From the NCBI GenBank assembly GCA_963706285.1, contig CAVPLU010000004.1, positions 128,001 through 192,000 of the forward strand: 64,000 nt of DNA. Reading direction: 5' to 3'. The notes below the pieces were generated by a model. The model saw nothing but the letters and a program-made list of their open reading frames with translations, did not search any database and was not told the DNA's origin. This DNA is from Candidatus Bathyarchaeota archaeon. Its GTDB lineage: Archaea; Thermoproteota; Bathyarchaeia; 40CM-2-53-6. Shown piece after piece: positions 27,272-63,342 of the stretch (its first letter is position 1; every line of letters starts with the position of its first letter). The position numbers and the translations under genes were made by a program.

Positions 27272-27380
27272 TGGTGGACCGGGCGGGATTTGAACCCGCG
27301 ACCTTCCGCACATTGGAACTGGAGTTTGCCAAGCGGACGATCTTCGGCCCTCGAGGCATACCAGACTGATCTACCGGCCC
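27272..27380 (-). tRNA. tRNA-Ala(GGC) with two introns: 21/22 (27343-27357) and 37/38 (27311-27326)
   Basis: Spliced product GGGCCGG..GATC/GATC..TCCGC-TTGGCAT-GCGGA..TTCAAAT..CCGGTCC-ACCA with G3:U70; relaxed BHB at both introns. Confidence 0.92.
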
Positions 27381-27572
27381 ACGATAATCGCCTAACATCA
27401 ACGATGTACGACCAATCATCATTTGAAGGGTCGTCCGTCTATGCGTCAGCGACGTGTGAGTTGGGTCTGGCCTCGTTAAATGGATTTTGGAAGCCCGAGA
27501 TTATCAGGGAGATTGAGTGATTGGGAAAGTCTTAATTGAAAGCCGAAAGGCCTACAGTCCCATCCCAGCTGT

Positions 27573-27736
27573 GCCGAGGTAGAACCTTCGGGTTCCTTGA
27601 CAGCTCAGCCTGGGAGAGCACCCGATGCCTGTGAGCAGGTGAGGCTGAAGACCGGGCTGACGGCCAGACGGCTGGCCCAATCGAGTGTTCAAAACCGTCG
27701 GGCCAACCGACGGGGAAAATCACTCCCTCGGCACCA
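27573..27736 (+). tRNA. tRNA-Phe(GAA) with four introns: 27581-27601, 27625-27643, 27660-27680, 27694-27719
   Basis: Removing four BHB-delimited inserts gives a 77-nt cloverleaf GCCGAGGTAGCTCAGCCTGGGAGAGCACCCGGCTGAAGACCGGGCTGTCGAGTGTTCAAATCACTCCCTCGGCACCA. Confidence 0.92.
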
Positions 27737-27816
27737 ACTACCCTACTTCCTCGAAGTTGACTCCTAGTCTGCAAAAGATAGATCAATGCCTGCAATAGCA
27801 CTGGAAGCAATCTAGG

Positions 27817-28586
27817 GTGCAAAGAGTGCGCGTCGGTTTCGTACAGATGAATCCACGACTACTTCGAGTAGAGGAGAACGTTGACAAAGCGCTCCGCTTT
27901 CTCGAGAGAAACAAAGCGGACCTAATGGTTCTCCCAGAACTCTTCAACACTGGATACAACTTCTCCAACCGTCGAGAGATCGAGAAGGTGGCCGAAAGGA
28001 TCCCTACCGGCTACACGATGTCAGAAGCTTCTGGACCTGTCGCGTAGTCGAAAGATGACGATCGTTGCAGGCATAGCGGAAAGAAGAGGAACAAGTCTAT
28101 ACAATTCTGCAATTGTAGCCCGTAACGGACGGGCGTCAACCTACCGTAAGGTTCACCTCTTCTTCAGGGAGAAGAAATTCTTCAAACCAGGAAACGAGTT
28201 CAAAGTCTTCGGCGATCTCGGAGTCATGATCTGTTTCGACTGGTTCTTTCCCGAGTCCGCTCGGACTCTGATGCTTAAAGGTGCAAAGATAATTGCTCAC
28301 CCATCGAATCTTGTACTGCCTTTCTGTCCCCATGCGATGAAGACGAGATGTATTGAGAACCGCGTCTTCGCAGTGACCGCGGACAGGATCGGCCGTGAAC
28401 AGCGAACTGAAGTACATAGGACGCTCGGAGATAGTTGACACGAAAGGGCGCATCTTGTACTGTGCTTCATCAAATCGAGAAGAGGTGAGGGTTCGTGAGA
28501 TCGATCTTCGAGAAGCTGCCAACAAGAGGATGACCTCCGTGAACGATATCATTCAGGACAGGAGGCCGGAAGTCTACGTGCGCTAG
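27817..28586 (+). CDS. Carbon-nitrogen hydrolase, nitrilase superfamily (two indels)
   Basis: VLPELF, YRKVHL, MICFDWFFPE catalytic E-K-C motifs. Confidence 0.9.
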
Positions 28587-28712
28587 CTTGGATGGTTCTA
28601 CGGTGATCGACTGTGAAAGTCTGGGCTTCATGCTTGTAAGTACTAGTATGTCTTTCCGTTGGCTTTGAAATAATAGAACGTACCGTATCTTGGGCCTAAT
28701 AACTTTCAGCTG

Positions 28713-29240
28713 GTGATAGCATCGTCATCTGGCAGTGTGCCGAGGGCAAGTGATACTTCAAGGAGAAGGTTTCTGAAGGCTCTCATAGTCTTCTCTGGCG
28801 CCTCGGTGCTTTTTCCTGTTGGGAGGCTGAGTGCGTATCTCCTTGAGAGAAAATCCGGCATAACCTCTTATCCACGCCAGAAGATCGCAAACAACAGCGA
28901 GGTTCCAGCTGGAGAGAGCCTTCTCTTCATTTATCCTCACGAGGATCGATCAGCTGTTCTCATACATTTGGCGTCAGGCGATTTCGTCGCATATGATGCA
29001 GTCTGCACTCACCTGGGTTGCCAGATCCACTTCGATAAGAAACCGATCAAGGGCTGGGAGGACAGAAAGGATAATCTCTTCTGCGCTTGCCATGGAGCTG
29101 TCTTTGATCCCAAGAACGGCAAAGTCTTGGATGGTCCTCCGCCGAGACCCATGCCAAAGATCAAACTTGAGATCGACACGAATGGCGACATCTATGCCAA
29201 CGGCTACGAGAGCGGTCTCCCGCTCTACGGTGAGGAATGA
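28713..29240 (+). CDS. Rieske [2Fe-2S] protein with Tat signal
   Basis: SRRRFLK plus TM; CTHLGC; CACHGAVF; GPPPRP. Confidence 0.93.
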   Translation: MIASSSGSVPRASDTSRRRFLKALIVFSGASVLFPVGRLSAYLLERKSGITSYPRQKIANNSEVPAGESLLFIYPHEDRSAVLIHLASGDFVAYDAVCTHLGCQIHFDKKPIKGWEDRKDNLFCACHGAVFDPKNGKVLDGPPPRPMPKIKLEIDTNGDIYANGYESGLPLYGEE

Positions 29241-29252
29241 GGAGACAAACAC

Positions 29253-29905
29253 TTGTCAAAGCGTTCTCGGTTTGCGCGACTTTGGGATTGGTTTGTAAGC
29301 AGAACCAGAATTGAACCGTTCATCACAAGCCACGTTCCCACGACATGCACTCAGCCCCATATACTGCCTCGGCGGAACAACCTTCCTCCTCTTCGTCGTA
29401 CTCGCGGTTACGGGCGTACTTCTCTCGATGTACTATGTCCCGTCACCCAGTGATGCATTCGACAGCATGATGACAATTACAAAGACAGTGCCCTATGGCT
29501 GGCTAGTCAGGAGCGTTCACTTCTACAGCGCGAACGGAATGCTGATTCTTGCAGTTCTACACATGCTGAGAGTCTACTACACGGGCTCGTACAAGGCTCC
29601 GCGTGAGCTGAACTGGGTTGCAGGCGTCAGCTTGGGTCTGCTGACGCTTGTTCGCTGGATACACGGGATACACGCTCCGGTGGGATCAGGTAGCAGTTGG
29701 TGCCTCAGGGATCGGCAAGGGAATAGCAACATCGATTCCCTATCTCGGGCCGCTATTCGGAAAGATGCTCTGGGGTAGAGGGCCGAGCGATACGCTATCA
29801 CGCTACGCAGGCAGCCATATGCTCCTCATACCTGGCGTAATGATCATCGTCATGGCGATCCACTTCTGGATGGTGAAGAGGCATGGAATCTCAGGCCCAC
29901 TCTGA
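29253..29905 (+). CDS. Cytochrome b6-type N-terminal cytochrome b (two indels)
   Basis: YCLGG, GWLVRSVH, HMLRVYYTGSYKAPRELNW, TGYTLRWDQ, HF..VKRHGISGPL. Confidence 0.9.
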
Positions 29906-30420
29906 ATCTGCGGACTCATCGACGGAAGACGAGATTCCGTTCTTCCCGAATCATCTGCTGAGCGAGATTGCTCTTGCTTTCGCGATACTCGGCTTGATCG
30001 TGATGTTCGCATCGCTTTTTCCAGCGGGGATGGGAGAGAAGTACGATCCGCTGAACCCTCCTGAGGTCCTGGAGCCTGAGTGGTACTTTATGGGCGTCTA
30101 CCAATTTCTAAAAACGCAGGGAGTTCAGCCAATTCACGCGGTTGCTCTACTGTCTGTGCTCGGAATACTTCTTGTTCTAGTGCCCGCTATCGACAGAGGA
30201 ACTCGGCGTGCCCCCAAAGATAGACCGTTTATGATGGCAGCCGCATTAGTTGTTGCCCTAGCAGTTCCTAGTTCTTACGAGCTACGGATATGCCACCCCA
30301 GGAGAGGTCGCATCGTTCTCGAATCCAACATTTCTGGCGATGCTTCTTGTCGTGAATGGAATATCAGTAGCGGCCTTACTACTCGGCGCCTACAAGCAGA
30401 GAAGGATCTCCAGGAGGTGA
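29883..30420 (+). CDS. Cytochrome b subunit IV (indel near 30260; corrected stop at 30420)
   Basis: PFFPNH, PEWYF Qo motif, LVPAIDR...RP. Confidence 0.85.
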
Positions 30421-30428
30421 AGGCTGCC

Positions 30429-30680
30429 TTGCCGAAACATATAGGTGTGTTGTCGATGTTCGCTTTCATAGTCGTATTTGTGATCGCGACTTACGCGATC
30501 TCGCAGCTCACATTGCTAGCCCCTCGCATGCTACAGGCAGCCGCATCGGGACCGGATCTGTTGATAGGTGTCGGATACGCTGCAGTGACTGTGGTTTCGA
30601 TTCTAATTCTTGGTCGCATGATCTACTCGAGCGAGCGCACCGCTGGCAGAGTCAAGCGGAGGATACGATTCTTTGAGTGA
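30429..30680 (+). CDS. Small two-TM protein
   Basis: TTG start after AGGAGGTGA; joined to subunit IV in the ORF track only through the indel. Confidence 0.55.
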   Translation: MPKHIGVLSMFAFIVVFVIATYAISQLTLLAPRMLQAAASGPDLLIGVGYAAVTVVSILILGRMIYSSERTAGRVKRRIRFFE

Positions 30681-30885
30681 GACAACCGGAAGCCGCCCCG
30701 CTTCATTATCGAGGCTGTGGGTTGCTCTGCTGGTAGTGTTCACCCTCATCGAGTTGGCGTTCCTATTCGAAGCCTACATGGCGGGTCTCGCTGGTCTGGA
30801 ACGAGTCTTCGGGATCTTTACCGGCCTTGTATTGGTCACTTTCGGAATCATATTATACGCCGGGAGGTTGATCTTCTATGACTAA
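30673..30885 (+). CDS. Small two-TM protein
   Basis: Hydrophobic 70-aa ORF overlapping both neighbours. Confidence 0.6.
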   Translation: MSETTGSRPASLSRLWVALLVVFTLIELAFLFEAYMAGLAGLERVFGIFTGLVLVTFGIILYAGRLIFYD

Positions 30886-31303
30886 ACGGATCGCACGACT
30901 CTTCGGAAGAGGTGGCGACCTGAATCCCCGGAACATGCGCCTTGGAATCTGGGCGTGGTTGATTCAGCGCGTGTCCGGAATCGTCTTAGTTGTGTTCGTT
31001 GTTGCGCACGTGGTTGCGATTTCTCAGGCAAGTTTCGCGCTTAAGGGCACATTAGTCACGATGCTGGACGGTTTGAGGAACCCGTTCTACTATGTTGACA
31101 GCACTTCTCTTGCTATCGATCTGATCATGCTAGGCATCATTGCGTTCCACGGTATGAATGGAATCCGTATCGTACTATTCGACACAGGTATTGGCGTCGG
31201 CCTCCGTTCGCACAAAGTCATCTTCTGGATCCTAATTGCCATAGCTGTCATCGCAAGTGGTCTCGTGATCTACTACGGTCTTCCGTCGCTCGGAGGAGCC
31301 TAA
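30878..31303 (+). CDS. sdhC: Succinate dehydrogenase membrane anchor C
   Basis: QRVSG..H, FHGMNGIRIVLFD. Confidence 0.88.
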   Translation: MTKRIARLFGRGGDLNPRNMRLGIWAWLIQRVSGIVLVVFVVAHVVAISQASFALKGTLVTMLDGLRNPFYYVDSTSLAIDLIMLGIIAFHGMNGIRIVLFDTGIGVGLRSHKVIFWILIAIAVIASGLVIYYGLPSLGGA

Positions 31304-31305
31304 CC

Positions 31306-31629
31306 GTGAGTGCAAATCCGTCAGCCCCCACGAACGTTTGGCTTTGGCTGTTCCAGAGAGTCACTGCCGTGCTACTGGTCGTCATCCTTGGAGTACATCT
31401 TTGGCTCGCCAATTTCGGACAAGCGTCAGCATCCATTCGTGCGATCCTCGGTGTCACACTTCTCGGACTCGCCCTCTTTCACGGTCTCAACGGCGTGCGG
31501 ACAATAATCTTCGACTTCAGCATAGGCGTTCAAGGCCGCAAGTTTGCAACGATGCTGCTTCTACTTCTTGGCACAGTATCGCTTCTGTTTGGAATGCATG
31601 GCCTCTGGCCGCTGATAATCGGAGGATAA
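31306..31629 (+). CDS. sdhD: Succinate dehydrogenase membrane anchor D
   Basis: WLFQRVTA..H, FHGLNGVRTIIFD. Confidence 0.85.
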   Translation: MSANPSAPTNVWLWLFQRVTAVLLVVILGVHLWLANFGQASASIRAILGVTLLGLALFHGLNGVRTIIFDFSIGVQGRKFATMLLLLLGTVSLLFGMHGLWPLIIGG

Positions 31630-31645
31630 TTGAGGCGCTTGAACT

Positions 31646-34075
<2,430 letters not shown>

Positions 34076-34087
34076 CTGGTCTTCGAT

Positions 34088-34189
34088 TTGAGTTGGTACT
34101 GCCCTAAGTGTAAGACTTCATTCTACGAATATCAACCGAGATGCCCCTACTGTCTTCTGCAATTGAGAAAATCGAAACGATTCGATTAG
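34088..34189 (+). CDS. 33-aa zinc-ribbon microprotein
   Basis: TTG start, WYCPKCKTSFYEYQPRCPYCLLQLRK; below the ORF-track cutoff. Confidence 0.55.
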   Translation: MSWYCPKCKTSFYEYQPRCPYCLLQLRKSKRFD

Positions 34190-34291
34190 CACACAAAAGT
34201 GATGTGTTGCGACGCATGCTGTATCAAGCTGGCAAAGCTGCAAACATGGACCGTAAGGCTTTAGCTATCAGAAGTGCTTCTGTGGACGCGT

Positions 34292-34426
34292 GCGGCCGTA
34301 GTCTAGCCTGGTCTAGGACGGGAACGCGCGCATCTGCGCGCCGCAAGCCTGCCAACGCCGGGCGGACCGCTTCTGACCTACAGCCGTAGGGAAGACACCC
34401 GGGTTCAAATCCCGGCGGCCGCACCA
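34292..34426 (+). tRNA. tRNA-Gly(GCC) with three introns: 29/30 (34324-34346), 37/38 (34355-34367), 45/46 (34376-34396)
   Basis: Spliced 78-nt cloverleaf with GGAGC-CTGCCAC-GCTTC anticodon arm and encoded CCA; BHB at each junction. Confidence 0.92.
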
Positions 34427-35950
34427 TTTCTCACAGCTAGGTAGACACATCGGTGTATATGGCTTTCAAAGACTCCTGTCAAGATTGAGGATACGGATTG
34501 CTGTGCGGCAAGTGTCAGAGTGTGTATGAGTTGGACAGGTTTGTGTATGCTTGAAATGATTGCCCCCTCATGACAGGAGTATTTGTGTGTGGGCACGACG
34601 AGGTGCATGATGAGCTCATTCTTCATGTGGTGGCAAATCGATGTCTGAGACTCGTTTGGGACTTAGGCTCGAGATATTCGGGAGCTCCGCTAAATGTGCA
34701 GGTATTCGTCAATGTGCCTAGTCGCCTAATCGCTCTCTATTACGGTGTCAACGTTGGCGACGGGACAAAGGGGTCAGCTCATGACAAGCTGACAAATTGA
34801 TGTGGTGTACACTAAGTTTCGGATCCAATTCTGCAAGGGGGCGAGGAAGCGTTTTATGTGACTTAGACGTCCCCCTACTGTGAAGGTTGATTTCTTGAAT
34901 TCAAGAAGGATTCTCCTGATCACAACATTATTCATGCTTTTCATATCCCTGCCTGTGAGCATACAGCTGGCTGCTGCTGGAAGCAGCCACGGTTAGCAAA
35001 CAGGTAATGTGCACAGGAATCGACAAGTCCCAGTCGACCTGGCAACCCGTCGGTGTTACAGATACATTCTCAACTGCAGATGAGGCAGTTTACAGTTTCA
35101 TCAATTTGGACGTGAATCCTCCAGTAAGCATCAAGGTCGTTTGGGTCGCTCCACACGAATTTGAGTTTGAAGGTAATAGCTACACCACCATTACTAACGG
35201 CGACCCGACAAAGATTGAGTGGAAGGGGTCCGGCTTCATGTACGATCTCCTTTCGATAGCAGGATCGAATTATGCTTTGCCTGTGGGCGTATGGAAAGTG
35301 CAGGTATACGGAGACACCACTCTCCTCTCAACAGCCCAGTTTACGCTCCAACCTGCAGTTGATATTGTGAGCAAAACCTTCAGCCCCGGAGAGGGTGAGC
35401 CTGTCTACCCGGGAGATATCGTGACGGCCACATATGAGCTCCAGAATGCTGGAAATACGATCTTGAAGGGTGTTAGCTTCGCATTAGAGACTCCACTGCC
35501 TCAAGATGTCAGTCTTGAGGAGGCCACGCCGCCCAGGGATATGCAGCCTGGTTCGACTGAGACTTTTGTGTTGAAAATGAAATTCGCAAGCGAAGGCACC
35601 TACTCGCCTACGATTCAGTTGATTATCAATGAGGAACTGATTGAAGGAGGAGCCCTTGAGGTACAAGTATCTCCGGCACCTTTCTCGTGGACTCTCATCA
35701 TAGCGGGCATCGTAGGAATCGCAGTGATTGTTCTAGTTGCTGTGCTCCTCATGCGTAGACGCAAGCCTTCGCGTCCGGCAGTGCCCCCTATGCCGTATGT
35801 TCCTCCCCAACCATCTCCCGTGATGCCTCAGGCAACGAAGTACTGCACATCGTGCGGTTCACAGATATCTCAAGACGTAAGATACTGTACGAAATGTGGC
35901 GCAAGCCAAGGCTAGGTCGACCTGTCAAAGGTCGAGAATCCGCCGCACCA
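34418..35950. mobile_element. Possible decayed element integrated at the tRNA-Gly 3' end
   Basis: GCCGCACCA at 34418-34426 recurs at 35942-35950; minus-strand SLRHRFATT motif near 34629-34652 in stop-ridden sequence. Confidence 0.35.
34895..35915 (+). CDS. Secreted beta-sandwich protein with TM anchor, Pro-rich linker and C-terminal zinc ribbon (indel near 34980)
   Basis: Signal-like segment upstream of ORF 35007; TM plus RRRK; CTSCG..CTKCG. Confidence 0.75.
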
Positions 35951-36070
35951 AGACCGAGCCGAACCGCCGCAGCCGGCATTCGACGACTCGTAGGTCCACC
36001 AAGCCTATTCGGGAACAGATCGTTTCGCGCCATTCGGCGCGGAGTCTGACCGTGTTTGCGCGTTGAAGCC

Positions 36071-36190
36071 CTATCCGTAAGGCGACGGGGTCTCAGCCGC
36101 AAGCAGCTGGATCCAGATGTCGAAGGTTCCATCGCGGTTTGAAGCGTAGATTATTGCCTTACCATCACGCCTCCACGATGCGTACACTGT
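36071..36190 (-). pseudogene. Orphan TolB/PD40-like repeat fragment
   Basis: YASWRRDGKAIIYASNRDGTFDIWI between two stops, with no upstream gene body. Confidence 0.5.
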
Positions 36191-36316
36191 TCAAGGCCCA
36201 AGGAGAAGCCATCGCTACGAAGAGTCCCCTTGTTGCGTCGATTATTGCGGTCTATTCTCTTGTCCTCAGGTAGGATTATTGAGGACACAATCGCGACGTA
36301 GGTAGAGTGTTGGTCA

Positions 36317-36775
36317 TTGGGAAGCGCAAAAGAGATCGATTTGTTTAGGAAGCAGATGATGTTTGAACGAAGTACAGCGCAAGGTCTTCATGCAACGTGC
36401 GCGAAAACAAAGAATACTGTGCCGAGGCTTCTCTTCAAGGCAATCGAACTCGACTCAACAAAACACGCCCACATGTATGCAACATTGATCGACATGGGGT
36501 CAGGAGCCACGATCTCTAAGGTTGAACACTACGAGATGAGAAAGGAACTCGAACGGCATGTCGCAAATGAGAAGATCATGCTTCTTCAAGCACAGAGAAT
36601 TGCAGCTAATCTGACGGATCCCCGGATGAAGCCGCTGCTCAAGACTATTCTGGCAGATGAGAGAAGACACCACAAAGCACTTGCGGCCATCCTGAAGACG
36701 ATTGCGGTGGAAGAGAAAGTAAGCGAAGACGATTGGTGGGACTACCTCAACAAGTGGGCAGTCTTCTCAACATAG
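36317..36775 (+). CDS. Ferritin-like four-helix bundle protein
   Basis: DSTKH and DERRHH paired carboxylate/His motifs. Confidence 0.75.
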   Translation: MGSAKEIDLFRKQMMFERSTAQGLHATCAKTKNTVPRLLFKAIELDSTKHAHMYATLIDMGSGATISKVEHYEMRKELERHVANEKIMLLQAQRIAANLTDPRMKPLLKTILADERRHHKALAAILKTIAVEEKVSEDDWWDYLNKWAVFST

Positions 36776-36805
36776 TCGAATGATCTCTTAGCGTCTTGGA
36801 GTCAT

Positions 36806-37996: not shown

Positions 37997-38048
37997 AGAA
38001 GACTATTTCGCATTTTGCACAAGCGTAGCTTACCGATATGTGAGCTGG

Positions 38049-42524: not shown

Positions 42525-42525
42525 G

Positions 42526-47492: not shown

Positions 47493-49651
47493 AGAATCGA
47501 ATTCGCATACTTCTTATCATAATTTTGATCTTGGAAATAGCACCGGTAGCACTCGTGGGGTCCGCTGCACTTCCAAGAGGGGTCTCTCTTGAGATAACGC
47601 ATGTAGGAGTAGGGGGCGGGCGGGACCAAGTTGCTGTGGGGGAAGTCTTCGACATATTTCCTGAAATGAAGTATTCTGGCATGCCAGACCGTACGCAGGT
47701 GGATGTGGTCCTATACTACGGGGCAGGAATCTACATCACTCAGGTAATCGACACCTATACTCAGTACGTGACTGGAAGCGGCACCTTCGCCACACGATTC
47801 TCCATGGCGGTCCAAGAAGCAGGACACCATGACGACATATTTGTTGGTTTGTATACTTCACTCGTGTGCATTTCTCATTCAGCATATAGCGACCATGCTC
47901 AAATGGTTCCTTGTTCGATTGACACACAGTACGTTGTCATAGACGCTTTTGATGTGGAAATGAATCTCGACGTAGACTATCCAAACAGCAATTTGGCTGT
48001 AGGCGAGAAGTTTCCAGTCATAGCTACGGTGGAGTATAGCAACATTCCGGTGAATTTCAATATCGAGTATAACATATGGGAGAATAGCGATGAGGCACTC
48101 TATAGGGGGGGGTTATTGGATGGATATGATGACCGGCCTGACCCGATTGGAATCGGTAAGACAGGCACCAGGTCGCATACGTTCACAATCTCACTTGACA
48201 GCCCCGGCCTGACAGAGCTCCGCGTGACGGTTGGATGGGGAGGCGATCCCACCACCACCAACACGGGAGGAAATGCCTACGTAGATACCGAAACCTTCCT
48301 GGTCAACATAGTAAGCGCAGATCTCGCGACGTCAGCTCAGGTATTGATTCTAGATATCGACTATGCCAGTCCTCCCGAGACGGTTCAGGCCCATGAGGAA
48401 ACCCCAATCATCGTCAAAGCCGAATACGATGGTCTAGAACAAGGTTCGAAACTGTCCGTTGACATCTATGACCTGAGTACTGGCTCGTTTCTGGATGGTG
48501 AAGTCTCTGAACTGCTGGGAGGGTTCGGAACATACACTTTCCGCCCGGTAGAAGTTACCCCTACGAGAGCCGGCAGTTGGAGTTTTCGTGTCGAAGTAGA
48601 GGCAACCACGGCCGCTCACACAGTCGCGAAGGTAACAAATGATTTTTCCATGACAGTGGTCGCTGGCGAAGCCGCACAGATAACGATCACAACGATCCAG
48701 TACGTTGGGTCGCCTGAGACAATTGCTATCGGCGAGTCCACGCCCGTAGCGGTGACTACCAAATACTCAAACTTGATTTCTGGCAGCCGACTGATCCTCT
48801 GGATCAAAGACTTGGACAAGAATGTAGCGTGCGAAGGCGGCACGTTATCATCGATTGCTCTCTCTGGGAGTGGAACGTACACGTTCCCCCAGCTCAAAAT
48901 CAAACCATCGAGAGCAGGCGACTGGCGTCTAGAGGCTGAGGTTGAGTTCAACGGTGACACCGTAGCCACGAAGCAGTTCACCATAACGGTCGTCAGTACG
49001 GGCAGCACCCAAGCAGGGCAAGTCATTATCACCAAATTCCTTTATGTCAGATCTCCGGAGACGGTCGCCGTCGAAGAGACCACGCCAATAACAGTTTCGA
49101 TCCATTACCAAAACTTGCCAGGAAACACCAAACTCAAGGCATTCGTCAATGACGAAGGCGCTCACATACAAGTAGGATCAGCAACTTCAACGTCTCTATC
49201 TGGAAACGGGGAATACACCTTCTCCAACATGGCGATAAAGCCCTCCAGAGTTGGAGATTGGCGTCTTACTGTAGGAGTTACAGGCTATCCGGACGCAGTC
49301 GAAGCATTCACGATCAAGGTGGTAGCGCCGACAGGTGAACCTCGGGTTCAAGTCAAAGGCGTGAAGCCGCCGCCCGGCACATTGAAGGTCGGCGAGCCTG
49401 CACCAATAACGGTCGCAATCAGTTATCAGAACTTAGCTCCAGGAACAAAGCTAACAGTCATCGTCCATGATTCTGACACTCACAAGGACCTGACTTCCGT
49501 GACATCGATTGCGCTCTCAGGGACCGGCACATACACCTTCACCACGATCACGATCACGCCAACCAAAGACGGAACCTGGCATCTGGGCCTTATGATCTCA
49601 GACTACCCAGACACCAAGACGGAGTTTACCGTGAACGTCGTGAAGAAATAG
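47489..49651 (+). CDS. Secreted protein with tandem Ig-like repeats of about 110 aa
   Basis: At least four repeats of PET..GE.TP..V..Y..L....SG.GTYTF....P.R.G.W.L. Confidence 0.85.
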   Translation: MKNRIRILLIIILILEIAPVALVGSAALPRGVSLEITHVGVGGGRDQVAVGEVFDIFPEMKYSGMPDRTQVDVVLYYGAGIYITQVIDTYTQYVTGSGTFATRFSMAVQEAGHHDDIFVGLYTSLVCISHSAYSDHAQMVPCSIDTQYVVIDAFDVEMNLDVDYPNSNLAVGEKFPVIATVEYSNIPVNFNIEYNIWENSDEALYRGGLLDGYDDRPDPIGIGKTGTRSHTFTISLDSPGLTELRVTVGWGGDPTTTNTGGNAYVDTETFLVNIVSADLATSAQVLILDIDYASPPETVQAHEETPIIVKAEYDGLEQGSKLSVDIYDLSTGSFLDGEVSELLGGFGTYTFRPVEVTPTRAGSWSFRVEVEATTAAHTVAKVTNDFSMTVVAGEAAQITITTIQYVGSPETIAIGESTPVAVTTKYSNLISGSRLILWIKDLDKNVACEGGTLSSIALSGSGTYTFPQLKIKPSRAGDWRLEAEVEFNGDTVATKQFTITVVSTGSTQAGQVIITKFLYVRSPETVAVEETTPITVSIHYQNLPGNTKLKAFVNDEGAHIQVGSATSTSLSGNGEYTFSNMAIKPSRVGDWRLTVGVTGYPDAVEAFTIKVVAPTGEPRVQVKGVKPPPGTLKVGEPAPITVAISYQNLAPGTKLTVIVHDSDTHKDLTSVTSIALSGTGTYTFTTITITPTKDGTWHLGLMISDYPDTKTEFTVNVVKK

Positions 49652-51274: not shown

Positions 51275-51384
51275 CAAGCTCGGTTGTCTCTCGCGTCTAC
51301 GCAGGGCCACCTGTCTGGAAGCCTAAATGGTCTTTTCACTGAGTATTCTAGGAACCTTCGCCTTTCTGTTCTGCGATCCGGACA

Positions 51385-52075: not shown

Positions 52076-52428
52076 GTGAATATGTCACCCTAATCCAATC
52101 GTTCTGATTGCTAGAACTGCCATCTCCATCGGAGCGCAGCAACGAAGAAGAACGTTAGACCCAACATAGCTCCTTGCCCTCCTTCCTCTTGGCCCCATTC
52201 GAAACCTCTCACTCGTCCGCAGTAGTCCGGTGCATTTTCAGACTTAACACTTGCCTTCTTGACATCTGCAATCGTACCCAATTACCAGCACTGCCGTGAT
52301 TGGGAGTCTCCTAGTGTGCCCACCCGAACCGTCATTGGAGTTGAATTGTGTGTACCTTGGTGCTAGCATCGAGAATTGGACCGTCGTGCGTCGTTGTTTA
52401 GGGTATCCAACTTCCATTGGTCAGCCAT

Positions 52429-53239: not shown

Positions 53240-53269
53240 TGATGAGTACGTCTCGCGTCTGGGGTCGTG

Positions 53270-54175: not shown

Positions 54176-54227
54176 CCCGTAGCACCTCGACGGAGTGCAG
54201 TTCGCATGTTATCTCGAATCGAAGTTT

Positions 54228-54692
54228 CTAGATGGTTGTAATGGATTCGCCGCCGTGCTTCTTCACGAGCAGGTTAATCGATTCCCGGTTCTGCTCCATT
54301 TTGGTTAACGTCTGCGTTAGCTGTTCCTCGATCGTGGTCCGAGCCTTATCTAAGTTGGCTATTCTGCCCTTGATTTCGTTGATGGAATCATCGATCGGTT
54401 TCTCGACTGCGACTCCAGCGCCTATGCCCATCACGATCTTTGAAACATCCGCGAGTTTCGCTCGAACATGGGAGCCAGCTCCGATCGGGATGAGAGCTTC
54501 CGTTTCTGTTTTCTGCGTCTTGATGCCTTGAAGAGTAGTTTGGGCGATTGCAGAGTCGCGTAGGGCAGCACTAACCAACTCAAGTCTCTCTTGTAGCGAC
54601 CGCGCGGATTCTTCTAAGACTCTTTGCTCCAACAAGAGTCTCTGGAACTCTTGGTCGTCGCTGGTGACTCTTACACTCGCCACTTTCTTCAA
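54228..54692 (-). CDS. pfdA: Prefoldin alpha subunit
   Basis: Coiled coils flanking LIPIGAG..MGIGAGVAVEK. Confidence 0.93.
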   Translation of the reverse strand: MKKVASVRVTSDDQEFQRLLLEQRVLEESARSLQERLELVSAALRDSAIAQTTLQGIKTQKTETEALIPIGAGSHVRAKLADVSKIVMGIGAGVAVEKPIDDSINEIKGRIANLDKARTTIEEQLTQTLTKMEQNRESINLLVKKHGGESITTI

Positions 54693-54703
54693 CCTCCATG
54701 TCT

Positions 54704-54901
54704 TCAGACTTCAGTCTTCATTTCTTCGATCTTCTTGAGCTTGATCTCAAGTCTTCTGGCTTTGTGCCTACTACCCACCTCAGCATAGACTCGTTCGATC
54801 GCTTCTTGCTCTTTCGTTGCTCTCATTACCAACGCGAACGGAATAACAGTGCGGGGTTTCTTCACTTCACCCGTAATTCTGAAGGTCTTAACGTCAATCA
54901 A
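54704..54901 (-). CDS. rpl18a: Ribosomal protein eL20 (L18Ae/LX)
   Basis: KTFRITG..AIERVYAEVGSRHK.RR..I. Confidence 0.92.
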   Translation of the reverse strand: MIDVKTFRITGEVKKPRTVIPFALVMRATKEQEAIERVYAEVGSRHKARRLEIKLKKIEEMKTEV

Positions 54902-55137
54902 CGAACATCACTAAGGGGGGAGGAGGTTCTATGGAAGATAGTCTCCACTATAAAGCTGCCCAAGGTGCACCACGTCGTCACAAATCATAGCCTTGCTGAC
55001 TGCGCCAGAGTGTTCGACGTCTTGAGGTCGAGATCTGCCGATCTATCTGACCTTGACGGTGGGCGGTGCGAGTTCTCCAAACGTTTTTATGAATCTCCGA
55101 ACATCAGCCTGCGGAACTTTCCAGAAGGAAAACGCGA

Positions 55138-55797
55138 TTGCCCCTAGCTAAGGATCAGCTTCTCACAGCCTTAGCAGGGCTTAGGAAACCGGATGCCAAA
55201 CATGGTTTCACTCACTCCATAGAGCTCATTGTTAAACTCAGAGAGATCGACCTGAAGAAGCCTGAGAACCGACTAAACGAGTCTGTTGAGCTTCCGAACT
55301 CCCTAGAGAAGGAAACAAAGGTATGCGTCATAGCAGGCGGGGACTTGGCAACAAGAGCGAAGGCAGGCCAAGCCGACTTGGTCATGGGGAGAGAAGACTT
55401 AGACAGGCTAGGGAAAGACAAGAAAGCGACCCGTAAGCTTGCATCTGAGTACGACTTCTTTATCGCCGAAGCACCCTTGATGCCTCTGGTTGGAAAGACG
55501 ATCGGCCAGATCCTAGGCCCGAAGGGTAAGATGCCTACGCCTGTCCCGCCTACCGCTCCAATTGATCAGATTGTTCAAAGTCACAGGAAACTTGTTCGGA
55601 TCCGAGTCCGAGAACAGCCTGTAGTCCAATGCCGGATCGGAACAGAAAAAATGCCTGACGAGAAGATCGCTGAGAACGCTCAAGCGATCTACAATCGGAT
55701 CGAAGCAAAGCTGGAACGCGGCGCCAAGAACATACGCCAAGTGCTAGTCAAGACCACCATGAGTGAACCCGTAAAGGTTCAGGTAACGAAGGGTTAG
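55138..55797 (+). CDS. rpl1: Ribosomal protein uL1
   Basis: FTHSIEL, DFFIAEAPLM, LGPKGKMP, KTTM. Confidence 0.96.
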   Translation: MPLAKDQLLTALAGLRKPDAKHGFTHSIELIVKLREIDLKKPENRLNESVELPNSLEKETKVCVIAGGDLATRAKAGQADLVMGREDLDRLGKDKKATRKLASEYDFFIAEAPLMPLVGKTIGQILGPKGKMPTPVPPTAPIDQIVQSHRKLVRIRVREQPVVQCRIGTEKMPDEKIAENAQAIYNRIEAKLERGAKNIRQVLVKTTMSEPVKVQVTKG

Positions 55798-55800
55798 CTA

Positions 55801-56982
55801 ATGCTCACAAGACAAGCCACACATGTGGCTCCATGGAAGAAGGAGATGTTCCAAAGACTAGCAGAACTGATTGAGAAGCATCCGGTCGTGGCGATTGCAG
55901 ATCTTCAAAAAGTGAGATCATCACAGCTCCAAGAGATCCGAAAGAAGCTGCGCGGGCAAGCCGAAGTGCTCGTGGCAAAAAACACCATACTTCAGAAAGC
56001 AGCCACCTCCATGGATGTGAAGAAACCTCACATCAACGACTTCGCCGAGGGCCTCGTCGGCTCGAATCTTCTATTGTTCACAGGCATGAACCCTTATGCG
56101 CTCATCCTCTTTCTAAACAAGAACAAGGTTCGTGTTCCTGCCAAAGCCGGCGACACAGCAACAAGCGAGATCATGATTCCCGCGGGCAATACCGGGTTAC
56201 AGCCTGGGCCCGTTATCAGCGAGTTTGGAGAGGTTAAGGTCACAACTAGGATCGAGGGAGGCAGTATCTGGGTCGCAAAGGACACTGTCGTGGCCTCAAT
56301 AGGCGACACGATATCCCCGAAACTCGCGTCTCTGCTATCGAAACTCGGCATGAAACCAATGGAAGCCGGGCTATCGATAGTTCGAGCCTTCGACGAGGGC
56401 ACAGTCCTCAAACAGGAAGACCTACTCTTCGATCTCGAATCATACAAGAGCGACATTTCGGAAGCATGCAGAGACGCAATCGCGCTAGCAGTCGAGGTAG
56501 AATACATTCTACCCGAAACCGCTCCGATCATCATAGGCAATGCCTACCGCGAAGCGCTCTACATAGCGAACGAGACCGAGTTCGCAACCTCTGAGAACAT
56601 AGCAGACCTCGTCAAGCAAGCCTATTCAGAGATGAGGGTCCTCTCCGAAGCAGCCGCCCAAATCAACAGCGAAGCAGCAGCCAAGGACGCGCCGATCGCT
56701 TCGCCAAGTTCTGGACAAAAACCCGCCGAAACGAAACCTGGAACCAAACCATCCGAAGCGAAACCACCCGAACCTAAACCGGTCGAAGCAAAACCAAAAC
56801 CCTCTGAAACTAAGCCAGTTGAAGTAAAGCCGCCACAAGAGAAACCGCCGACAGTGAAGCCGTCCGAGACGAAGCTACCGGAAAAAGCTTCAGCGGCCAA
56901 ACCATCCGAAACGAAGACGGGAAGTGCGAAACCGCCGGAGAAGAAACGGCAGGAAAAGGTTGAAAAGAAGGCTAAACGGTAG
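55801..56982 (+). CDS. rpl10: Ribosomal protein uL10/P0 with KP-repeat tail
   Basis: [31 protein letters not shown]. Confidence 0.95.
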
Positions 56983-57011
56983 CTGGCGAAGTCTATTACA
57001 AGGTGCGAGTC

Positions 57012-57317
57012 ATGAAATATATGTACGCCGCATTGCTGCTTCACTCAGCAGCACAGTCAGTCGACGAAGAGAATATTAAGAAAATCCTAACCGCAGCCGG
57101 TGTCAAGCCAGAGGAAGCCAGGGTCAAAGCTCTCGTAGCAGCCCTCTCCGAAGTCAAGATTGACGAGGCTCTAAAGGCAGCAAAGGCAGCACCCATTGCT
57201 GTCGCGGCGCCAACAGCCGCTGCACCAGCTGCAGGAAAGAAGGAAGAGAAGAAACCCGAAGACGACAAGAAGAAGGAAGAAGAAGCCCTAGCAGGTCTTG
57301 GGGCACTATTCGGCTGA
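57012..57317 (+). CDS. rpl12: Stalk protein aP1/L12
   Basis: [24 protein letters not shown]. Confidence 0.96.
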
Positions 57318-57453
57318 TTCCATGTGCTTGTCTTGGGCCATCTCTGCCTCAAAACGTTTTTTCTTGCTCTAACCCTTTAGCCAACAAGGCAGAGCAAGAA
57401 AGTTCTTTGTATTCACTGCGTCTTCTGCCTTGTGGGTCCGAAGGGGCGCCATA

Positions 57454-60209
57454 ATGGACATTGACGAGAAAGAGTTCGCGGTTCCTTTCTTCAAGGAGTT
57501 GGGATTCGCTAGACGTCGCTGCATCGGGTGCGGAAGCCACTTCTGGACACAGATGCCTGACCGTGCAACTTGCGGCGATGTTCCATGCGAAGAGTACACG
57601 TTCATTGGGAATTCGCCCGCTCGCAAGAGCCTTTCTCTGCGGGAAGCTCGCCAAACATTCCTATCATTCTTCGAGAGCAAAGGTCACAAGATAATCAAAC
57701 CTTATCCGGTTGTGGCTCGTTGGCGTGACGACGTCTACCTAGTCGGCGCATCCATATTTGATTTCCAACCTCTCGTGACAGAAGGTGTAATTCCACCACC
57801 GGCGAACCCGCTTGTCATCAGCCAACCCTGTCTACGATTCACGGATCTGGATAATGTTGGCCCAACCGCGGGGAGGCACCTTCTCATATTCGAGATGGGC
57901 GGGCATCACGCCTTCAACTATCCAGACAGACAAGTTTACTGGAAGGACGAAACGATCCGATATCACCACGAATTGCTTACTGACCGGCTCGGCGTAAGGT
58001 CAGATCTCGTCACTTACAAGGAACATTTCTGGTCAGGCGGAGGAAACGCTGGGCCCGACCTTGAAGCCTGCGTCAATGGTCTTGAGGTCTCTACGCTCGT
58101 TTTCATGCAATACAAAGCCATCGGCGATCAGCTATTTCCGCTTCCGATCAAGACTGTAGATACAGGCTACGGGATTGAGCGGTGGGCGTGGCTCACCCAG
58201 GCCTCACCAAGCTGTTTCTCAGTCATCTACGGACCGATACTGGATCGCATACTGACGCTTGCAGGGGTGAGCATAGATCCGAAGGTCATGATTGAGAACA
58301 CGAAAGTTTCAGGCATCATGAATATCGAGAAGAATTCAGACCGAATTGAGGCACGCAAGAAGGTTGCAGAGAGGCTTGGGATGGACTGGCATGAGCTTGA
58401 GGCAATTATTGTTCCGATCGAAAGGGCGTCCGCGGTAGCCGACCACACGAAGGCGATCTCTTTCCTGCTGGCCGAAGGCGTTGTTCCATCCAACGTGGCA
58501 GCCGGTTACCTTACACGACTGTTGATTCGAAGGACATACCGCATGCTACGGTTACTTGGAATCGAGGATCGTTTGGGCGAGATCACCGACATGCAGATCA
58601 GCCACTGGGGAGTTGATTTTCCGCATCTCAGCGAGATGAAGAATGAGATACTAGAAGCTCTCCGAGTTGAGGAAGGGAAGTTCAAGAAGACACTGGAACG
58701 AGGAAGTGAAATTGTCAGACGCATCTCAATTGATTTGAAAGCGAAACATCAAGACCGCATACCAACAGAGACACTTGTTCAACTCTACGACTCGCAAGGC
58801 CTCGTGCCGGACATCGTGCGAGATGAAGCCGAAAAGGAAGGAATCCGAGTTGACGTTCCCGGCAACTTCTTTGGGATGGTTGCTCAGAAGCATCTATCCG
58901 CAGCCAGCGAAGCTGAAGACGAATCAGAGAAGTTGCTGAAGGAGAAGGTCGCTCGGTTCCCTGAGACGACGCCTCTCTACTACACAGGATGTCTACCAGC
59001 AGGAATTCGAAGCGAAGGTTCTCGGAATCATAGACGATAATCACCTCGTGCTTGATCAGACGTGTTTCTATTCGGAGAGCGGCGGACAAGTCCGCCGACC
59101 AGGGCGTGATAGTGTCGTCGTTCGGTTCAGCGAAGGTAATCGATGTCCGACGCGTTGGCAAGGTTGCATTGCATTTGATCGATGGCCCTATGCCAAAGGT
59201 CGGCGAGAAGGTGAATGGAAAACTCGATTGGCAACGCCGGATTGCACTGATGCGTCATCACACAGCGACACATGTCGTGTTGGGAGCTGCAAGGAGGGTC
59301 CTCGGGCAACACGCTTGGCAGGCAGGTGCGCACAAAGGCGTCGAGAACGTGCGCCTCGACATTTCGCATTACGAGCGGATTACGGACGAGCAAGTTGCTG
59401 AGATCGAGAGGCTCGCCGGTGAGTTGATCATGAGATGTGTCCCGGTCGAGGCCACATGGATGCCACGAGAAAAGGCGGAACAGGAATACGGGTTCATTCT
59501 ATACCAGGGCGGCGTGGTCCCAGGAAGGGAGATCCGCGTCATCAAGATTGGTGACTGGGATGTTGAAGCCTGCGGCGGAACACACGTGAAGAACACGGGC
59601 GAGATCGGCTTGATCAAAGTGCTCAAGACCGAGCGCGTCCAAGACGGCGTTGAACGTCTCATATTTGCCGCCGGAACGGCCGCACTGAAGGTCATACAAA
59701 ACAGACAGGCAATACTAGAAAGGAGCGCTTCAATCCTCGACGCGCCTCTGGAGAAGGTGGACGAGTACGCGAGCTCCATCTCGGAAGAGAAAGACCGTCT
59801 AATTAAGCGTCTCCAAGACGTTCGGACCCAACTCGCGGCCGTTGAGTCGAAGAATCTTCTCTCACTTGCTGAAAAGATTGGAGAGATCAAACTGGTTACT
59901 GTCATGAAAAGGGTGGGTGAGGAAGAGGACATTGTAGCATTGTCAAACCAAATTGTCGAAGCTGACCCAACCGCCGTACTCGTGGCGACACTCGTCAGAG
60001 ACAACGTGAGGATCTTCGTCGCGGCCGGTAAGGATGCCATCAGGGCAGGGGTGCACGCAGGCAAAGTGGCAGGAGAACTTGCTAAGATAGTGGGCGGAGG
60101 AGGCGGCGGAAAAGAATACTTCGGGCAAGGAGGCGGAACCATGCTGAACAACGCTGAGGTTGCACTCACAACCGCAAAGAAGGTTATCCAATCCCATCTC
60201 AAGAGGTAA
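57454..60209 (+). CDS. alaS: Alanyl-tRNA synthetase (two indels, near 58985 and 59090)
   Basis: PVVARWRDD, FEMGGH, DTGYGIER, HTATH, ACGGTH, GGGGG. Confidence 0.96.
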
Positions 60210-60215
60210 CAGGTA

Positions 60216-63123
60216 GTGGTTGTGGACTGGAAAGCGGTTCAGGAAAAGGTATTGAAGGACTGGGAAGAAGCTCGCATATTCGAGGCTGACCCCGACCCAT
60301 CTAAAGAGAAGTTCTTCATCACAGTCGCGTATCCATACCCTAACTCTCCGCAACACATTGGCCACGCCAGGACGTACACGATCACCGATGTCCACGCCCG
60401 ATACCTGCGAATGAGAGGCTACAACGTACTCTTCCCGATGGCGTTCCATTACACGGGAACACCGATTCTTGCAATGGCGGAGCGAATTGCTAAAGGAGAT
60501 CCAGAACTCGTCGACGACTTCCTCCGCATATATCATGTGCCCAAAGAGAAACTGAAGGATTTCACTGAGCCGATCGAGATAGCTCGCTACTTCCACGAGG
60601 AAGTGAAGCGCGGTATGAGGGACATGGGGTTTTCAATCGATTGGCGAAGAGAGTTCACAACCGTCGATCCAACTTACAGCCGCTTCATCGAGTGGCAATT
60701 TGGGAAACTACGTGAGAAAGGTCTGATCACCAAAGGTAGTCACCCAGTGGGATGGTGTCCGAACGACGGCAACCCGGTCGGCCAACACGATACCATCGGC
60801 GATGTAGAGCCAGAGATTGGACAGTACGTCTTGCTGAAGTTCAAGATGGGCGACGCTTTCCTCCCAACAGCTACTCTCAGACCCGAGACTGTGTTTGGAG
60901 TCACCAACATCTGGGTGAAGCCCGACATAGTCTATGTGAAAGCGAGAATTGATGCGGAGAACTGGATAATCAGCGAGCCGTGCCTCAAGAAGCTGGAATA
61001 CCAGAACCGCAAAGCAAGTGTCATCGAACGCGTGCAAGGAGCCAGTCTGATCGGGAAATCTGCAACAAATCCAATGACAGAGACTCCGGTGATCATTCTG
61101 CCAGCCGAATTTGTGGATCCTGAAAGCGCGACTGGCGTAGTGATGTCAGTTCCGGCGCACGCTCCATACGATTATCAGGCACTTGTAGATTTGGAGCGAA
61201 AGCCGGAAGTTCTGAGTCAGTTCGGTATTGCGAGAGACCTGGTTACGAAGCTTTCACCGATTGGTGTTGTCAAGCTTGAAGGGTACTCGGACGCTCCGGC
61301 GGTTGATGTGGTGAAACATCTAGGCATAGAAAAGCAGACCGATCCAAAGCTAGAGGAAGCCACAAGTGAGGTCTACAGCAAGGAATTCCATTCAGGACGC
61401 ATGAGAGACTACACAGGCACCTACGCAGGCCTATCCGTCTCAGAGGCGAGAGATCGAGTACGGGATGATCTGGTTGCGAAGGGCGGCGCCGATGTGATGT
61501 ATGAGATCATCAACAGACCAGTCACATGCAGGTGCGGCACGCAATGCATCGTGAAGATGTTTGAGAATCAATGGTTCATCAACTACGGCGACCCAAAATG
61601 GAAAGAACTCGCACGCGAGTGCCTCAGGTTGATGAGTATCCTCCCCGAGGAATTCCGAACTGAGATTGACTATGCAATCGGTTGGCTTAAGGAAAAGGCA
61701 TGCGCCCGGAAGTCCGGGCTTGGAACGCGCCTCCCATGGGATAAGGACTGGATCATCGAAAGCCTCTCTGACTCCGTCATATACATGGCGTATTACATAC
61801 TAGCGAAACACATCAGACGCCTCAAGCTGAAACCGGAACAGCTGTCAGACGAGATACTCGACTATCTCTTTCTCAGCCAAGGCGACGCGCAGAAGCTGGC
61901 GAAATCAGCTGGAATTGAGGATTCAAAGCTGAGAGAGATTCGGGATGAGTTTGCGTATTTCTATCCAGTCGATTCGAGACACTCGGGTAGAGATCTGATA
62001 CCGAATCATTTGACATTCTACATCTTCAACCATGCCGCCATATTCCCACGAGAGAAGTGGCCTCGCCAGATAGTTACCAACGGGAGCGTACTAATGGATC
62101 ACGCGAAAATGTCCAAATCATTTGGCAATATTATTCCGTTACGTGATGCAATCGCTCAGCATGGCGCCGATGCTGTTAGACTATCAACAGTCTCAGCAGC
62201 TGAGCTAATCCAAGACGTCGAGTTCAGCCACCAAGCTACCGAATCTCTACGTGAGAGAATCGAGCGAATGTACCTTCACGCTCAATCCATTGTTGCTGCT
62301 GGTCCCGCGAGCAGCACTGCAACCTACGGGGGGAACGAAGAGAAATGGATGCTCAGCAGACTTCAGAGTTGCATACGAGACACGACTGCCGCGATGGAAA
62401 AGTTGCGTGCGCGAGAGGCCGTTCACCATGCACTCTACGAGCTTGAGCAGGATCTGTCATGGTATATGAGGAGAGCCAAGGCGCGTTCGGGAATCAATCC
62501 CGACATTATCATGCGCGTATTAGACGCACGCGTTCGACTGATGGCGCCATTCACACCGTTCATCTCCGAAGCAACCTGGAGCATGATGGGAAAGCAAGGG
62601 TTCGTCTCAATTGCAGAGTGGCCGCATCCTGACATGGCTCTCATGAATGAGAAAGTGGAGGAAATCGAAAGCCTTCTCCAAACAACCGTAGAGGACGTGG
62701 CAAATATACTCAAGACAACCGGGATGAGCGTGAAGACACTCTACCTCTACACATCTGCAGAATGGAAATGGTCGCTGTATCTGAAGGCGCTTGAGATGGC
62801 CTCCAAGGGGTCCGTGGGAGTTCCAGAGCTGATGAAGGCCGCCTCAGCAGACCCAGCTCTGAAAGAGAGAATGAAGGAAATATCGAAGCTCGCTCCTAAA
62901 CTCGCCAAGGATTTACAGGTTACCGCACTTGACATGCAAGAGAAGAGGCGCAGACTAGGCAAGATCAGCGAACGCGAAGCCCTCGACAGACGCCGCAGCA
63001 TTCCTCAGCAAGGAATTCAAATGTGCGGTCACCGTTCACGAAGAAACGGACGAGAGAAAGTACGACCCGAAAGCGCGAGCTCAGACAGCTCAACCCTTCC
63101 GCCCAGCCATCTACATGGAATAG
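60216..63123 (+). CDS. leuS: Leucyl-tRNA synthetase (indel near 62987; corrected end YDPKARAQTAQPFRPAIYME)
   Basis: AYPYPN.PQHIGH, ATLRPET, IESLSDS, KMSKS. Confidence 0.96.
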
Positions 63124-63213
63124 AACCCCATCTTGAGCCAGTGCTGGCTCCTGAGGCTCAACAAGGTGCATAGAAGAAAGCTGATATGAGCAACAGTCCA
63201 GTGTGCGCATAGC

Positions 63214-63342
63214 GGGCCCGTAGCTCAGCCTGGACAGCACCCCCGATGCGCAAGTCAGGGTGTTCAAAGCATCGGCCCTCTATGCCTACAACAGAGCGAG
63301 GCAAGCCGGGGGCCGTGGGTTCGAATCCCACCGGGCCCGCCA
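63214..63342 (+). tRNA. tRNA-Arg(UCU) with two introns: 22/23 (63238-63267) and 37/38 (63283-63303)
   Basis: Spliced 78-nt cloverleaf with A20 and G73; BHB central helices GGAC/GTTC and CCTC/GAGG; C at position 33. Confidence 0.88.

Follow-up and report, generated by a model that had tools for sequence, protein, structure and literature searches.

A window of 64,000 nucleotides (nt) from an uncultured archaeon of soil and wetland, C4:128001-192000 of a metagenome-assembled genome (MAG) belonging to the Bathyarchaeia, holds four tRNA genes, for alanine, phenylalanine, glycine, and arginine, each of which is interrupted by more than one short intron (Table 1). The affiliation is supported by the leucyl-tRNA synthetase (LeuRS) encoded in the window, which is 78-90% identical to LeuRS of MAGs labelled Candidatus Bathyarchaeia and ∼50% identical to LeuRS of Nitrososphaeria and Methanomethylicia. 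The assembly comprises 2.13 Mb in 21 contigs with a completeness of 89% and a contamination of 7.5%, and it contains redundant contigs, with C20 repeating part of contig C4 and C1 part of C6. The original prediction, made from the letters of the window, held that four of four tRNA genes carry multiple introns, with 11 introns at nine different positions and 8 of the 11 at non-canonical sites. A purpose-written solver recovered all of these genes, introns, and sites (three canonical and eight non-canonical introns), and the program ARAGORN called all four spliced sequences as the expected tRNAs. We consider it highly probable that the four are real, functional tRNA genes, each with several short protein-spliced introns, and that the whole tRNA set of this genome is alike.

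Table 1. Interrupted tRNA genes of the window and their introns (window positions; BHB, bulge-helix-bulge)
Feature	Position	Strand	Description
tRNA-Ala(GGC)	27272..27380 (body 27380-27275)	-	Encoded CCA; G3:U70 acceptor pair; spliced form called tRNA-Ala(ggc) by ARAGORN
Ala intron 37/38	27311..27326	-	16 nt; canonical BHB (central helix 4 bp, outer 5, inner 1)
Ala D-loop intron 21/22	27343..27357	-	15 nt; relaxed HBh' (4,0,3)
tRNA-Phe(GAA)	27573..27736 (body to 27733)	+	Encoded CCA; four introns; 11/11 orthologous loci solved as tRNA-Phe
Phe intron 8/9	27581..27601	+	21 nt; BHB (4,2,6); absent at exactly that junction in G031, G012, G033, G029
Phe intron 30/31	27625..27643	+	19 nt; BHB (4,2,3); in 11/11 orthologs
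Phe intron 46/47	27660..27680	+	21 nt; HBh' (4,0,5); in 11/11 orthologs
Phe T-loop intron 59/60	27694..27719	+	26 nt; BHB (3,5,7); in 6/11 orthologs
tRNA-Gly(GCC)	34292..34426 (body to 34423)	+	Encoded CCA; three introns
Gly intron 29/30	34324..34346	+	23 nt; BHB (3,4,6)
Gly intron 37/38	34355..34367	+	13 nt; outer helix 4 -> 7 bp after removal of the 29/30 intron
Gly intron 45/46	34376..34396	+	21 nt; BHB (4,1,5)
tRNA-Arg(UCU)	63214..63342 (body to 63339)	+	Encoded CCA; two introns; 40 nt downstream of the leucyl-tRNA synthetase gene
Arg intron 22/23	63238..63267	+	30 nt; HBh' (4,1,4)
Arg intron 37/38	63283..63303	+	21 nt; canonical BHB (4,5,2)

The outermost coordinates of the set, 27272 and 63342, are the ends of encoded CCA tails, and inspection by eye already showed unmistakable tRNA features at both of them. 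The borders of the Ala D-loop intron can be drawn as 13, 15, or 17 nt, and the 13-nt alternative (27344-27356) scores about equally; we prefer the 15-nt intron at 21/22 by analogy with tRNA-Ala(CGC) and tRNA-Ala(UGC), both of which have an intron at 21/22 too. No tRNA was obtained on the minus strand of positions 27380-27760, the Phe gene lying on the plus strand. A uridine is near-universal at tRNA position 33; the anticodon loop of tRNA-Arg(UCU), CCUCUAA, has C at this position, as do all 10 orthologs that were solved (L001-L009 and L014).

These genes are hidden from standard searches. On the raw 64-kb window ARAGORN found 0 tRNA genes and Rfam at its gathering score gave 0 matches, while a permissive E-value returned only a fragment matching the tmRNA model over the T-arm and acceptor end of the Ala gene. 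Across the whole genome, ARAGORN without introns gave 3 matches, each of them a misfold over an interrupted tRNA gene, and its single-intron mode gave 26, mostly with wrong anticodons. The Rfam tRNA model had 23 matches at E ≤ 1, 16 of them above the cutoff, and all the full-length matches span 88-129 nt against a model of 71 positions. Our solver uses dynamic programming to fit a cloverleaf while permitting insertions of 11-220 nt at any position, with a bonus for intron borders of the BHB type, that is, those at which a 4-base stretch of exon pairs with a 4-base stretch of intron, the former ending 2 nt ahead of the 5' cut and the latter 2 nt ahead of the 3' cut. ARAGORN run on each spliced product served as an outside check.

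Candidate regions came from two seed sets, one of strong T-arms (score ≥24; 58 seeds of 1315) and one combining a 7-bp acceptor stem, U8, and an encoded CCA with a T-arm that is intact or interrupted once (116 of 1957 seeds retained). For T-arm seeds with scores of 21-23, the check was limited to the presence of a matching acceptor strand. Solver versions that were set aside included one without BHB weighting, which placed loop introns arbitrarily and misread the Arg gene as Leu, and one with a cheap intron penalty, which overfit with up to 9 introns per region. The final version has a higher intron penalty, a capped motif bonus, 12-nt D-loops, a second intron beside a loop, and exhaustive re-optimization of the anticodon arm. 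Real genes scored 60-83 with this version and false seeds scored below 60 and were ARAGORN negative; among the strong T-arm seeds, 22 of 58 were discarded, as were most of the acceptor-plus-CCA seeds, because they gave low-scoring, ARAGORN-negative solutions only.

The search of the whole genome returned 46 tRNA loci, which reduce to 43 nonredundant genes with 43 different anticodons, each found once; the three redundant loci are Met and Thr-GGU on C20, which copy C4, and Arg-UCG, present on both C1 and C6. None of the 43 genes is intronless and 35 have two or more introns, the numbers per gene being one in 8, two in 17, three in 10, four in 6 (Arg-CCU, Asn, both Gln, Glu-UUC, and Phe), and five in 2 (Trp and Pro-GGG). 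The introns total 106, an average of 2.47 per gene, and range in length from 12 to 65 nt (median 21.5 nt). Site 37/38 accounts for 28 introns, and the other 78 are spread over 28 other positions, the commonest being 30/31, 29/30, 15/16, 21/22, 59/60, 45/46, 22/23, and 8/9. ARAGORN called the spliced product a tRNA in 46 of 46 loci with the anticodon matching that of the solver in 45, and the remaining locus resolved to Lys-CUU upon re-optimization. Each of the 43 genes has its exons in collinear order within a single locus, and no split or permuted tRNA was identified. The original prediction had extended the window result to a genome-wide expansion comparable to or beyond that of Thermoproteales, and the BHB-aware search of the whole MAG agrees with it, the value lying above that of Thermoproteales; the contrary outcome, in which most other tRNA genes would be intronless or have a single intron, is not what we found (0 and 8 of 43, respectively). 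With more than one intron per gene, most genes interrupted, and many non-canonical sites, this genome has the features by which saturated lineages are recognized.

The census brought several further observations on individual genes. The 3' CCA is encoded in 36 of the 43 genes; in its place stand CTT in three Leu genes and Ser-GCU, CCT in Ser-CGA, and TCA in one CAU tRNA, and the Tyr gene is truncated at a contig end. The two tRNA-Arg(UCG) loci (C1, reverse complement 4054-4203, and C6:90769-90918) have almost identical exons and 29/30 and 37/38 introns of equal length, whereas their 40-nt 15/16 introns are unrelated in sequence, and the pair may reflect either a mixture of two strains within the bin or the recent replacement of an intron. 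The longest intron, 65 nt, lies at 37/38 of tRNA-Trp (C13, reverse complement 48165-48382) and measures 60-65 nt in relatives. Euryarchaeota carry a box C/D RNA at this intron site of tRNA-Trp; a simple pattern search of the 65-nt intron found CTGA and no RTGATGA box.

The intron borders carry a strong splicing-motif signal. In 80 of the 106 introns (75%) all four pairs of the central helix form at the exact BHB register, versus 96 of 1060 shuffled controls (9%), for which intron letters were permuted and the identical border refinement was applied, and the strict hBHBh' form occurs in 36 introns (34%) versus 6 shuffled ones (0.6%). The other classes comprise 39 HBh', 13 hBH, and 13 with one central mismatch, so that 101 introns fall in some motif class versus 320 of the shuffled set, and three of the five "weak" calls are pipeline artifacts that resolve to 4-bp helices. 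After splicing, the mature bodies of isoacceptors agree with one another (three Ala, three Gly, five Leu, and two Gln, and also Val, Thr, and Pro), and all three Ala genes keep G3:U70 and share one common acceptor stem. No Rfam family, ribozymes included, was matched in the window, and the intron lengths fit those of short archaeal introns (about 11-120 nt). From these features we infer that the introns of this saturated genome are spliced.

The strongest line of evidence for the reality of the introns is that predicted exon junctions are found as contiguous DNA in relatives. The 11 orthologous tRNA-Phe loci of the family have 2, 3, 4, or 5 introns, all 11 agree over bases 1-43 of the 74-base mature sequence, and in loci without a given intron the predicted junction is contiguous. 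For Pro-GGG, where 7 of 10 loci were solved (this genome and nine relatives, three of which gave no solution), the gene has five introns in this genome and three in four congeners; its spliced form is identical to that of G004 and G002 and differs from that of G009 and G005 at one or two D-loop bases. The 13/14 intron is present in this genome only among the seven solved loci, and the comparison with congeners indicates that the 7/8 and 13/14 introns are recent. For Trp, six of the nine loci from relatives, spanning two genera, return the five-intron solution and the same mature sequence as here; of the other three, two came out as variants and one gave no solution. Among the loci of tRNA-Arg(UCU) behind the LeuRS gene (15 of 26 processed), all nine close relatives have the same two introns (29-33 and 19-22 nt), and the distant relative L014 has only 37/38 and lacks 22/23. 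The central helix of the Lys-CUU 30/31 intron also covaries, pairing CAGC with GCTG in this genus versus CGGC with GCCG in another.

We used the number and length of Rfam tRNA matches per genome as a proxy for the extent of interruption. Genomes of the genus have 6-18 matches, and 9 of 10 have no match of intronless length among the matches listed (151 of 317), the exception being two contigs of one 6%-contaminated genome. Family genomes have 10-17 matches with at most one of intronless length per genome, and other families of the order have 11-30. The 49 genomes from other orders of the class have 17-48 matches (most 30-48; median 32), many of them 72-76 nt long. By this proxy, saturation is confined to one order and reaches its extreme in this family. 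Six genomes of other orders (G066, G071, G080, G092, G087, and G091) have only 17-20 matches despite a completeness of 88-98% and may be further intron-rich lineages of Bathyarchaeia. We propose that introns have built up in one family and order of the Bathyarchaeia and that their gain or loss is still under way between species of one genus; the polarity of gain versus loss was judged by eye under parsimony.

The genome encodes the machinery that such introns would need. There are two EndA paralogs, at C12:149004-149243 (186-amino-acid [aa] open reading frame [ORF]) and C6:75200-75433 (174-aa ORF). The 186-aa alpha subunit best matches crenarchaeal catalytic subunits (2CV8, 4e-40; 3P1Z_B, 3AJV_B, and 2ZYZ_B), keeps Tyr, His, and Lys when aligned to 2CV8 and 3P1Z_B, and aligns across the crenarchaeal loop region without gaps to 2CV8 (Sulfolobus tokodaii) and with a one-residue offset to 3P1Z_B (Aeropyrum pernix); a Lys at the place matching the crenarchaeal loop lysine is presumably the functional residue. 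Alignment of the 174-aa beta subunit to 1A79 shows other residues in place of Tyr and His; the roles of the catalytic residues are those established for the Methanocaldococcus jannaschii enzyme. The pair is of the (alpha-beta)2 crenarchaeal type and is predicted to assemble as a heterotetramer and to cut relaxed motifs, so the broad-specificity endonuclease that was anticipated alongside the introns is indeed encoded. The (alpha-beta)2 EndA is described as cutting relaxed motifs at non-canonical positions (PMC5829648, PMC4033280). Two EndA paralogs occur in 36 of 41 sampled Bathyarchaeia genomes, intron-poor ones included, and because intron-poor relatives carry the same pair, the endonuclease type permits the expansion and does not cause or explain it. 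The ligase RtcB is encoded as well; at C4:105729-107043 (minus strand) the match falls into two neighboring segments, covering model positions 1-243 and 236-426 and each in an open frame of its own, either through a frameshift or as a split gene.

Drawing on sequence and known enzymology, we suggest the following scheme. The precursor would be transcribed whole, and at each intron a stretch of four bases in the exon, close before the 5' cut, would pair with four bases near the intron 3' end, the resulting 4-bp helix and its flanking 3-nt bulges forming either the full hBHBh' motif or a relaxed HBh' or hBH version. The (alpha-beta)2 endonuclease would cut in both bulges, with the crenarchaeal loop on its catalytic subunit admitting relaxed motifs at any position, and RtcB would join the exons. 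In the 12 genes that combine an anticodon-stem intron (28/29 to 30/31) with one at 37/38, the outer helix of the 37/38 intron has 1-4 pairs in the raw sequence and 5-7 after removal of the stem intron; because this helix is complete only once the stem intron is lost, splicing is probably ordered, as described for Thermoproteales. In Gly-CCC, 5' leader bases take part in the central helix of the 3/4 intron, and this intron would therefore be spliced before the 5' end is trimmed.

Three to four paralogous elements elsewhere in the genome carry what look like orphan copies of tRNA 3' ends: C4:371096-371290 (plus strand), C4:∼81040-81232 (minus), C5:14345-14536 (plus), and C4:1-33 (minus, cut by the contig end). 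Each consists of a near-identical ∼70-nt core with a 7-bp hairpin, a variable stretch, and a perfect T-arm with a 7-nt acceptor-like strand. Their 3' parts are similar to the corresponding ends of Leu-CAG, Ser-GCU, and Pro-UGG, and the Pro-UGG gene lies 1.45 kb upstream of one copy. We considered them as missing tRNAs or split tRNA halves and found no 5' partner; no Rfam family matched them, and reading them as attachment sites was unsupported by the scan of 10 neighboring ORFs, in which no integrase domain was found.

Several points weigh against a fully interrupted, working tRNA set. The motifs of Arg-GCG 29/30 (3,1,1) and Ser-GGA 35/36 (3,0,0) are weak, some borders, among them those of the D-loop introns of Ala and Ser-GCU, have more than one possible placement, and the motif counts are partly circular, since the solver rewards BHB borders and shuffling corrects for the border search and not for the choice of solution. 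Genes for tRNA-Asp, tRNA-His, and a third CAU tRNA were not found with seeds that require a T-arm intact or split once, or an encoded CCA, so that genes lacking both could escape. In a comparison with three RNA-library runs and one DNA run, contigs from the RNA libraries span parts of the Ala and Phe genes with introns in place and no joints reported; no spliced RNA was seen in these contigs, a type of data unable to display mature tRNA and thus neutral as to splicing. It might be argued that the intron count is inflated by the solver, given that arbitrary deletions let almost any sequence fit a cloverleaf, and that the true genes have fewer introns. The early versions did return spurious introns and the false Leu reading, and a few final calls were corrected by hand or re-optimization (Asn first read as Phe, Lys-CUU as Gly), but we judge this account very improbable: whatever the solution, the insertions must add up to the gene span less ∼75 nt, the 88-129-nt span of full-length matches is seen with Rfam alone, orthologs lacking an intron have its predicted exon junction as contiguous DNA, false seeds are separated from real genes by score and by ARAGORN, and 43 different anticodons were each found once. 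That the interrupted genes are instead decaying pseudogenes or contaminants of the bin, with the ordinary working tRNAs absent from the assembly, would gain from the incompleteness and contamination of the MAG and its redundant contigs. We nevertheless regard it as scarcely credible, as the 43 anticodons form a near-complete decoding set over nine contigs with the duplicate C1 and C20 loci set aside, including a 479-kb contig with LeuRS and alanyl-tRNA synthetase (AlaRS); mature sequences are conserved and introns diverged across many independently assembled relatives; and matches of intronless length are likewise wanting, among those listed, in nine of the ten genus genomes.

Two further alternatives accept the interrupted set and concern its origin. 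The heavy load could be ancestral to the Bathyarchaeia or older and lost elsewhere, with no lineage-specific expansion or recent gains. The family-wide presence of Phe 30/31 and 46/47 in all 11 loci, the Trp five-intron solution shared by two genera, and the low match numbers in a few other orders are in keeping with this idea, which we nonetheless find unlikely in view of the 30-48 matches, many of 72-76 nt, in most other orders versus 13-14 in the genome's own family, the restriction of Pro-GGG 13/14 to this genome among the solved loci, and the absence of Arg 22/23 from L014. Introns might also be kept as protection of tRNA genes against integrating elements that use them as attachment sites, and the three genes whose 3' ends the orphan copies resemble are all without an intron there. 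A T-arm intron is absent from 35 of the 43 genes, so that three of three is about what chance would give (about 0.5), and the neighborhood of the orphan copies is free of integrase domains in the ORFs scanned; nothing in these comparisons supported protection, which is a quite improbable explanation.

The closest precedents within the Thermoproteota/TACK archaea are the Thermoproteales, such as Pyrobaculum calidifontis and Thermofilum pendens, which likewise have short BHB or relaxed introns at canonical and many non-canonical sites. Also described in them are an (alpha-beta)2 endonuclease with the crenarchaeal loop and the removal of neighboring introns in order (PMC8450103, PMC4033280). The record in this order as given there is that of P. 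calidifontis, with 71 introns in 46 genes (1.54 per gene) and "up to three" per gene (PMC8450103), and reviews and the tRNAscan-SE 2 paper give about 70% of tRNA genes interrupted with at most three introns per gene. Measured against these values, the Bathyarchaeia genome has 100% versus ∼70% of genes interrupted, 2.47 versus at most 1.54 introns per gene, and up to five versus three in a single gene. Intron transposition between different tRNAs, reported for Thermoproteales, left no sign here: an all-against-all BLAST of the 106 introns gave only two similar pairs, both within isoacceptor pairs.

A near-equal load has been described for the Asgard classes Atabeyarchaeia and Freyarchaeia. The 2024 paper reports 92-95% of tRNA genes interrupted and 228 introns in three genomes (PMC11291895). 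An October 2026 preprint puts the load at 2.20-2.42 intervening sequences per gene, with 97-98% of genes affected, a maximum of five in a single gene, and a median length of 22-23 nt; many lie in the D-arm and are missed by standard software, and gains were repeated and independent, with no general arrival route found. The corresponding values here (100% of genes, 2.47 introns per gene, at most five in one gene, median length 21.5 nt) place the load at or slightly above those of Asgard and well above those of Thermoproteales, and the state is not unprecedented. The Asgard lineages belong to another phylum than the Bathyarchaeia, which implies an independent origin of saturation. Among more remote systems, the red alga Cyanidioschyzon merolae has multiple introns at non-canonical positions with BHB-like motifs, but in a eukaryotic nucleus, with permuted genes too and far fewer genes affected (PMC3728597). 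The split tRNAs of Nanoarchaeum equitans and Caldivirga involve the same endonuclease chemistry on a BHB between pieces, but these are separate genes joined in trans, whereas the exons in this genome are collinear in one locus.

No paper on tRNA introns in Bathyarchaeia was found in the literature searched, which did not extend to subscription journals, and the preprint mentions Bathyarchaeia 0 times. We rate the Bathyarchaeia as a new lineage for a known phenomenon that has so far been reported only from other archaeal groups. The fuller claim, that this family exceeds every genome yet seen in tRNA-intron load, that the load arose independently of both Thermoproteales and Asgard, and that introns are still being gained at species scale within a genus (two Pro-GGG introns in this genome alone; 2-5 introns in Phe across the family), stands for us at an even balance. 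The origin of archaeal tRNA introns and the filling of some lineages with them is an open question whose base has so far consisted of Thermoproteales and two Asgard classes; this family would add a third, independent saturated lineage, one with the same endonuclease type as its intron-poor relatives. Its added value lies in the many presence/absence differences between close relatives, which are material for the insertion mechanism, and if the fuller claim is true, closely related soil and peat MAGs that differ by single introns would constitute a natural experiment on BHB intron insertion. In practice, tRNA counts as a criterion of MAG quality will be badly wrong for this group, for which standard finders return almost nothing.

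Two features of the window lie outside the tRNA genes. AlaRS is encoded by two adjacent plus-strand ORFs in different frames, at 57430-59040 (536 aa; the catalytic domain) and 59052-60209 (385 aa; the tRNA_SAD and DHHA1 domains), which is either a true split enzyme or the product of a frameshift or assembly error. Positions 12498-21021 hold a cluster of ORFs for HdrA-like flavoproteins and ferredoxin-domain proteins (12498-14453, 14456-15739, and 19054-21021).

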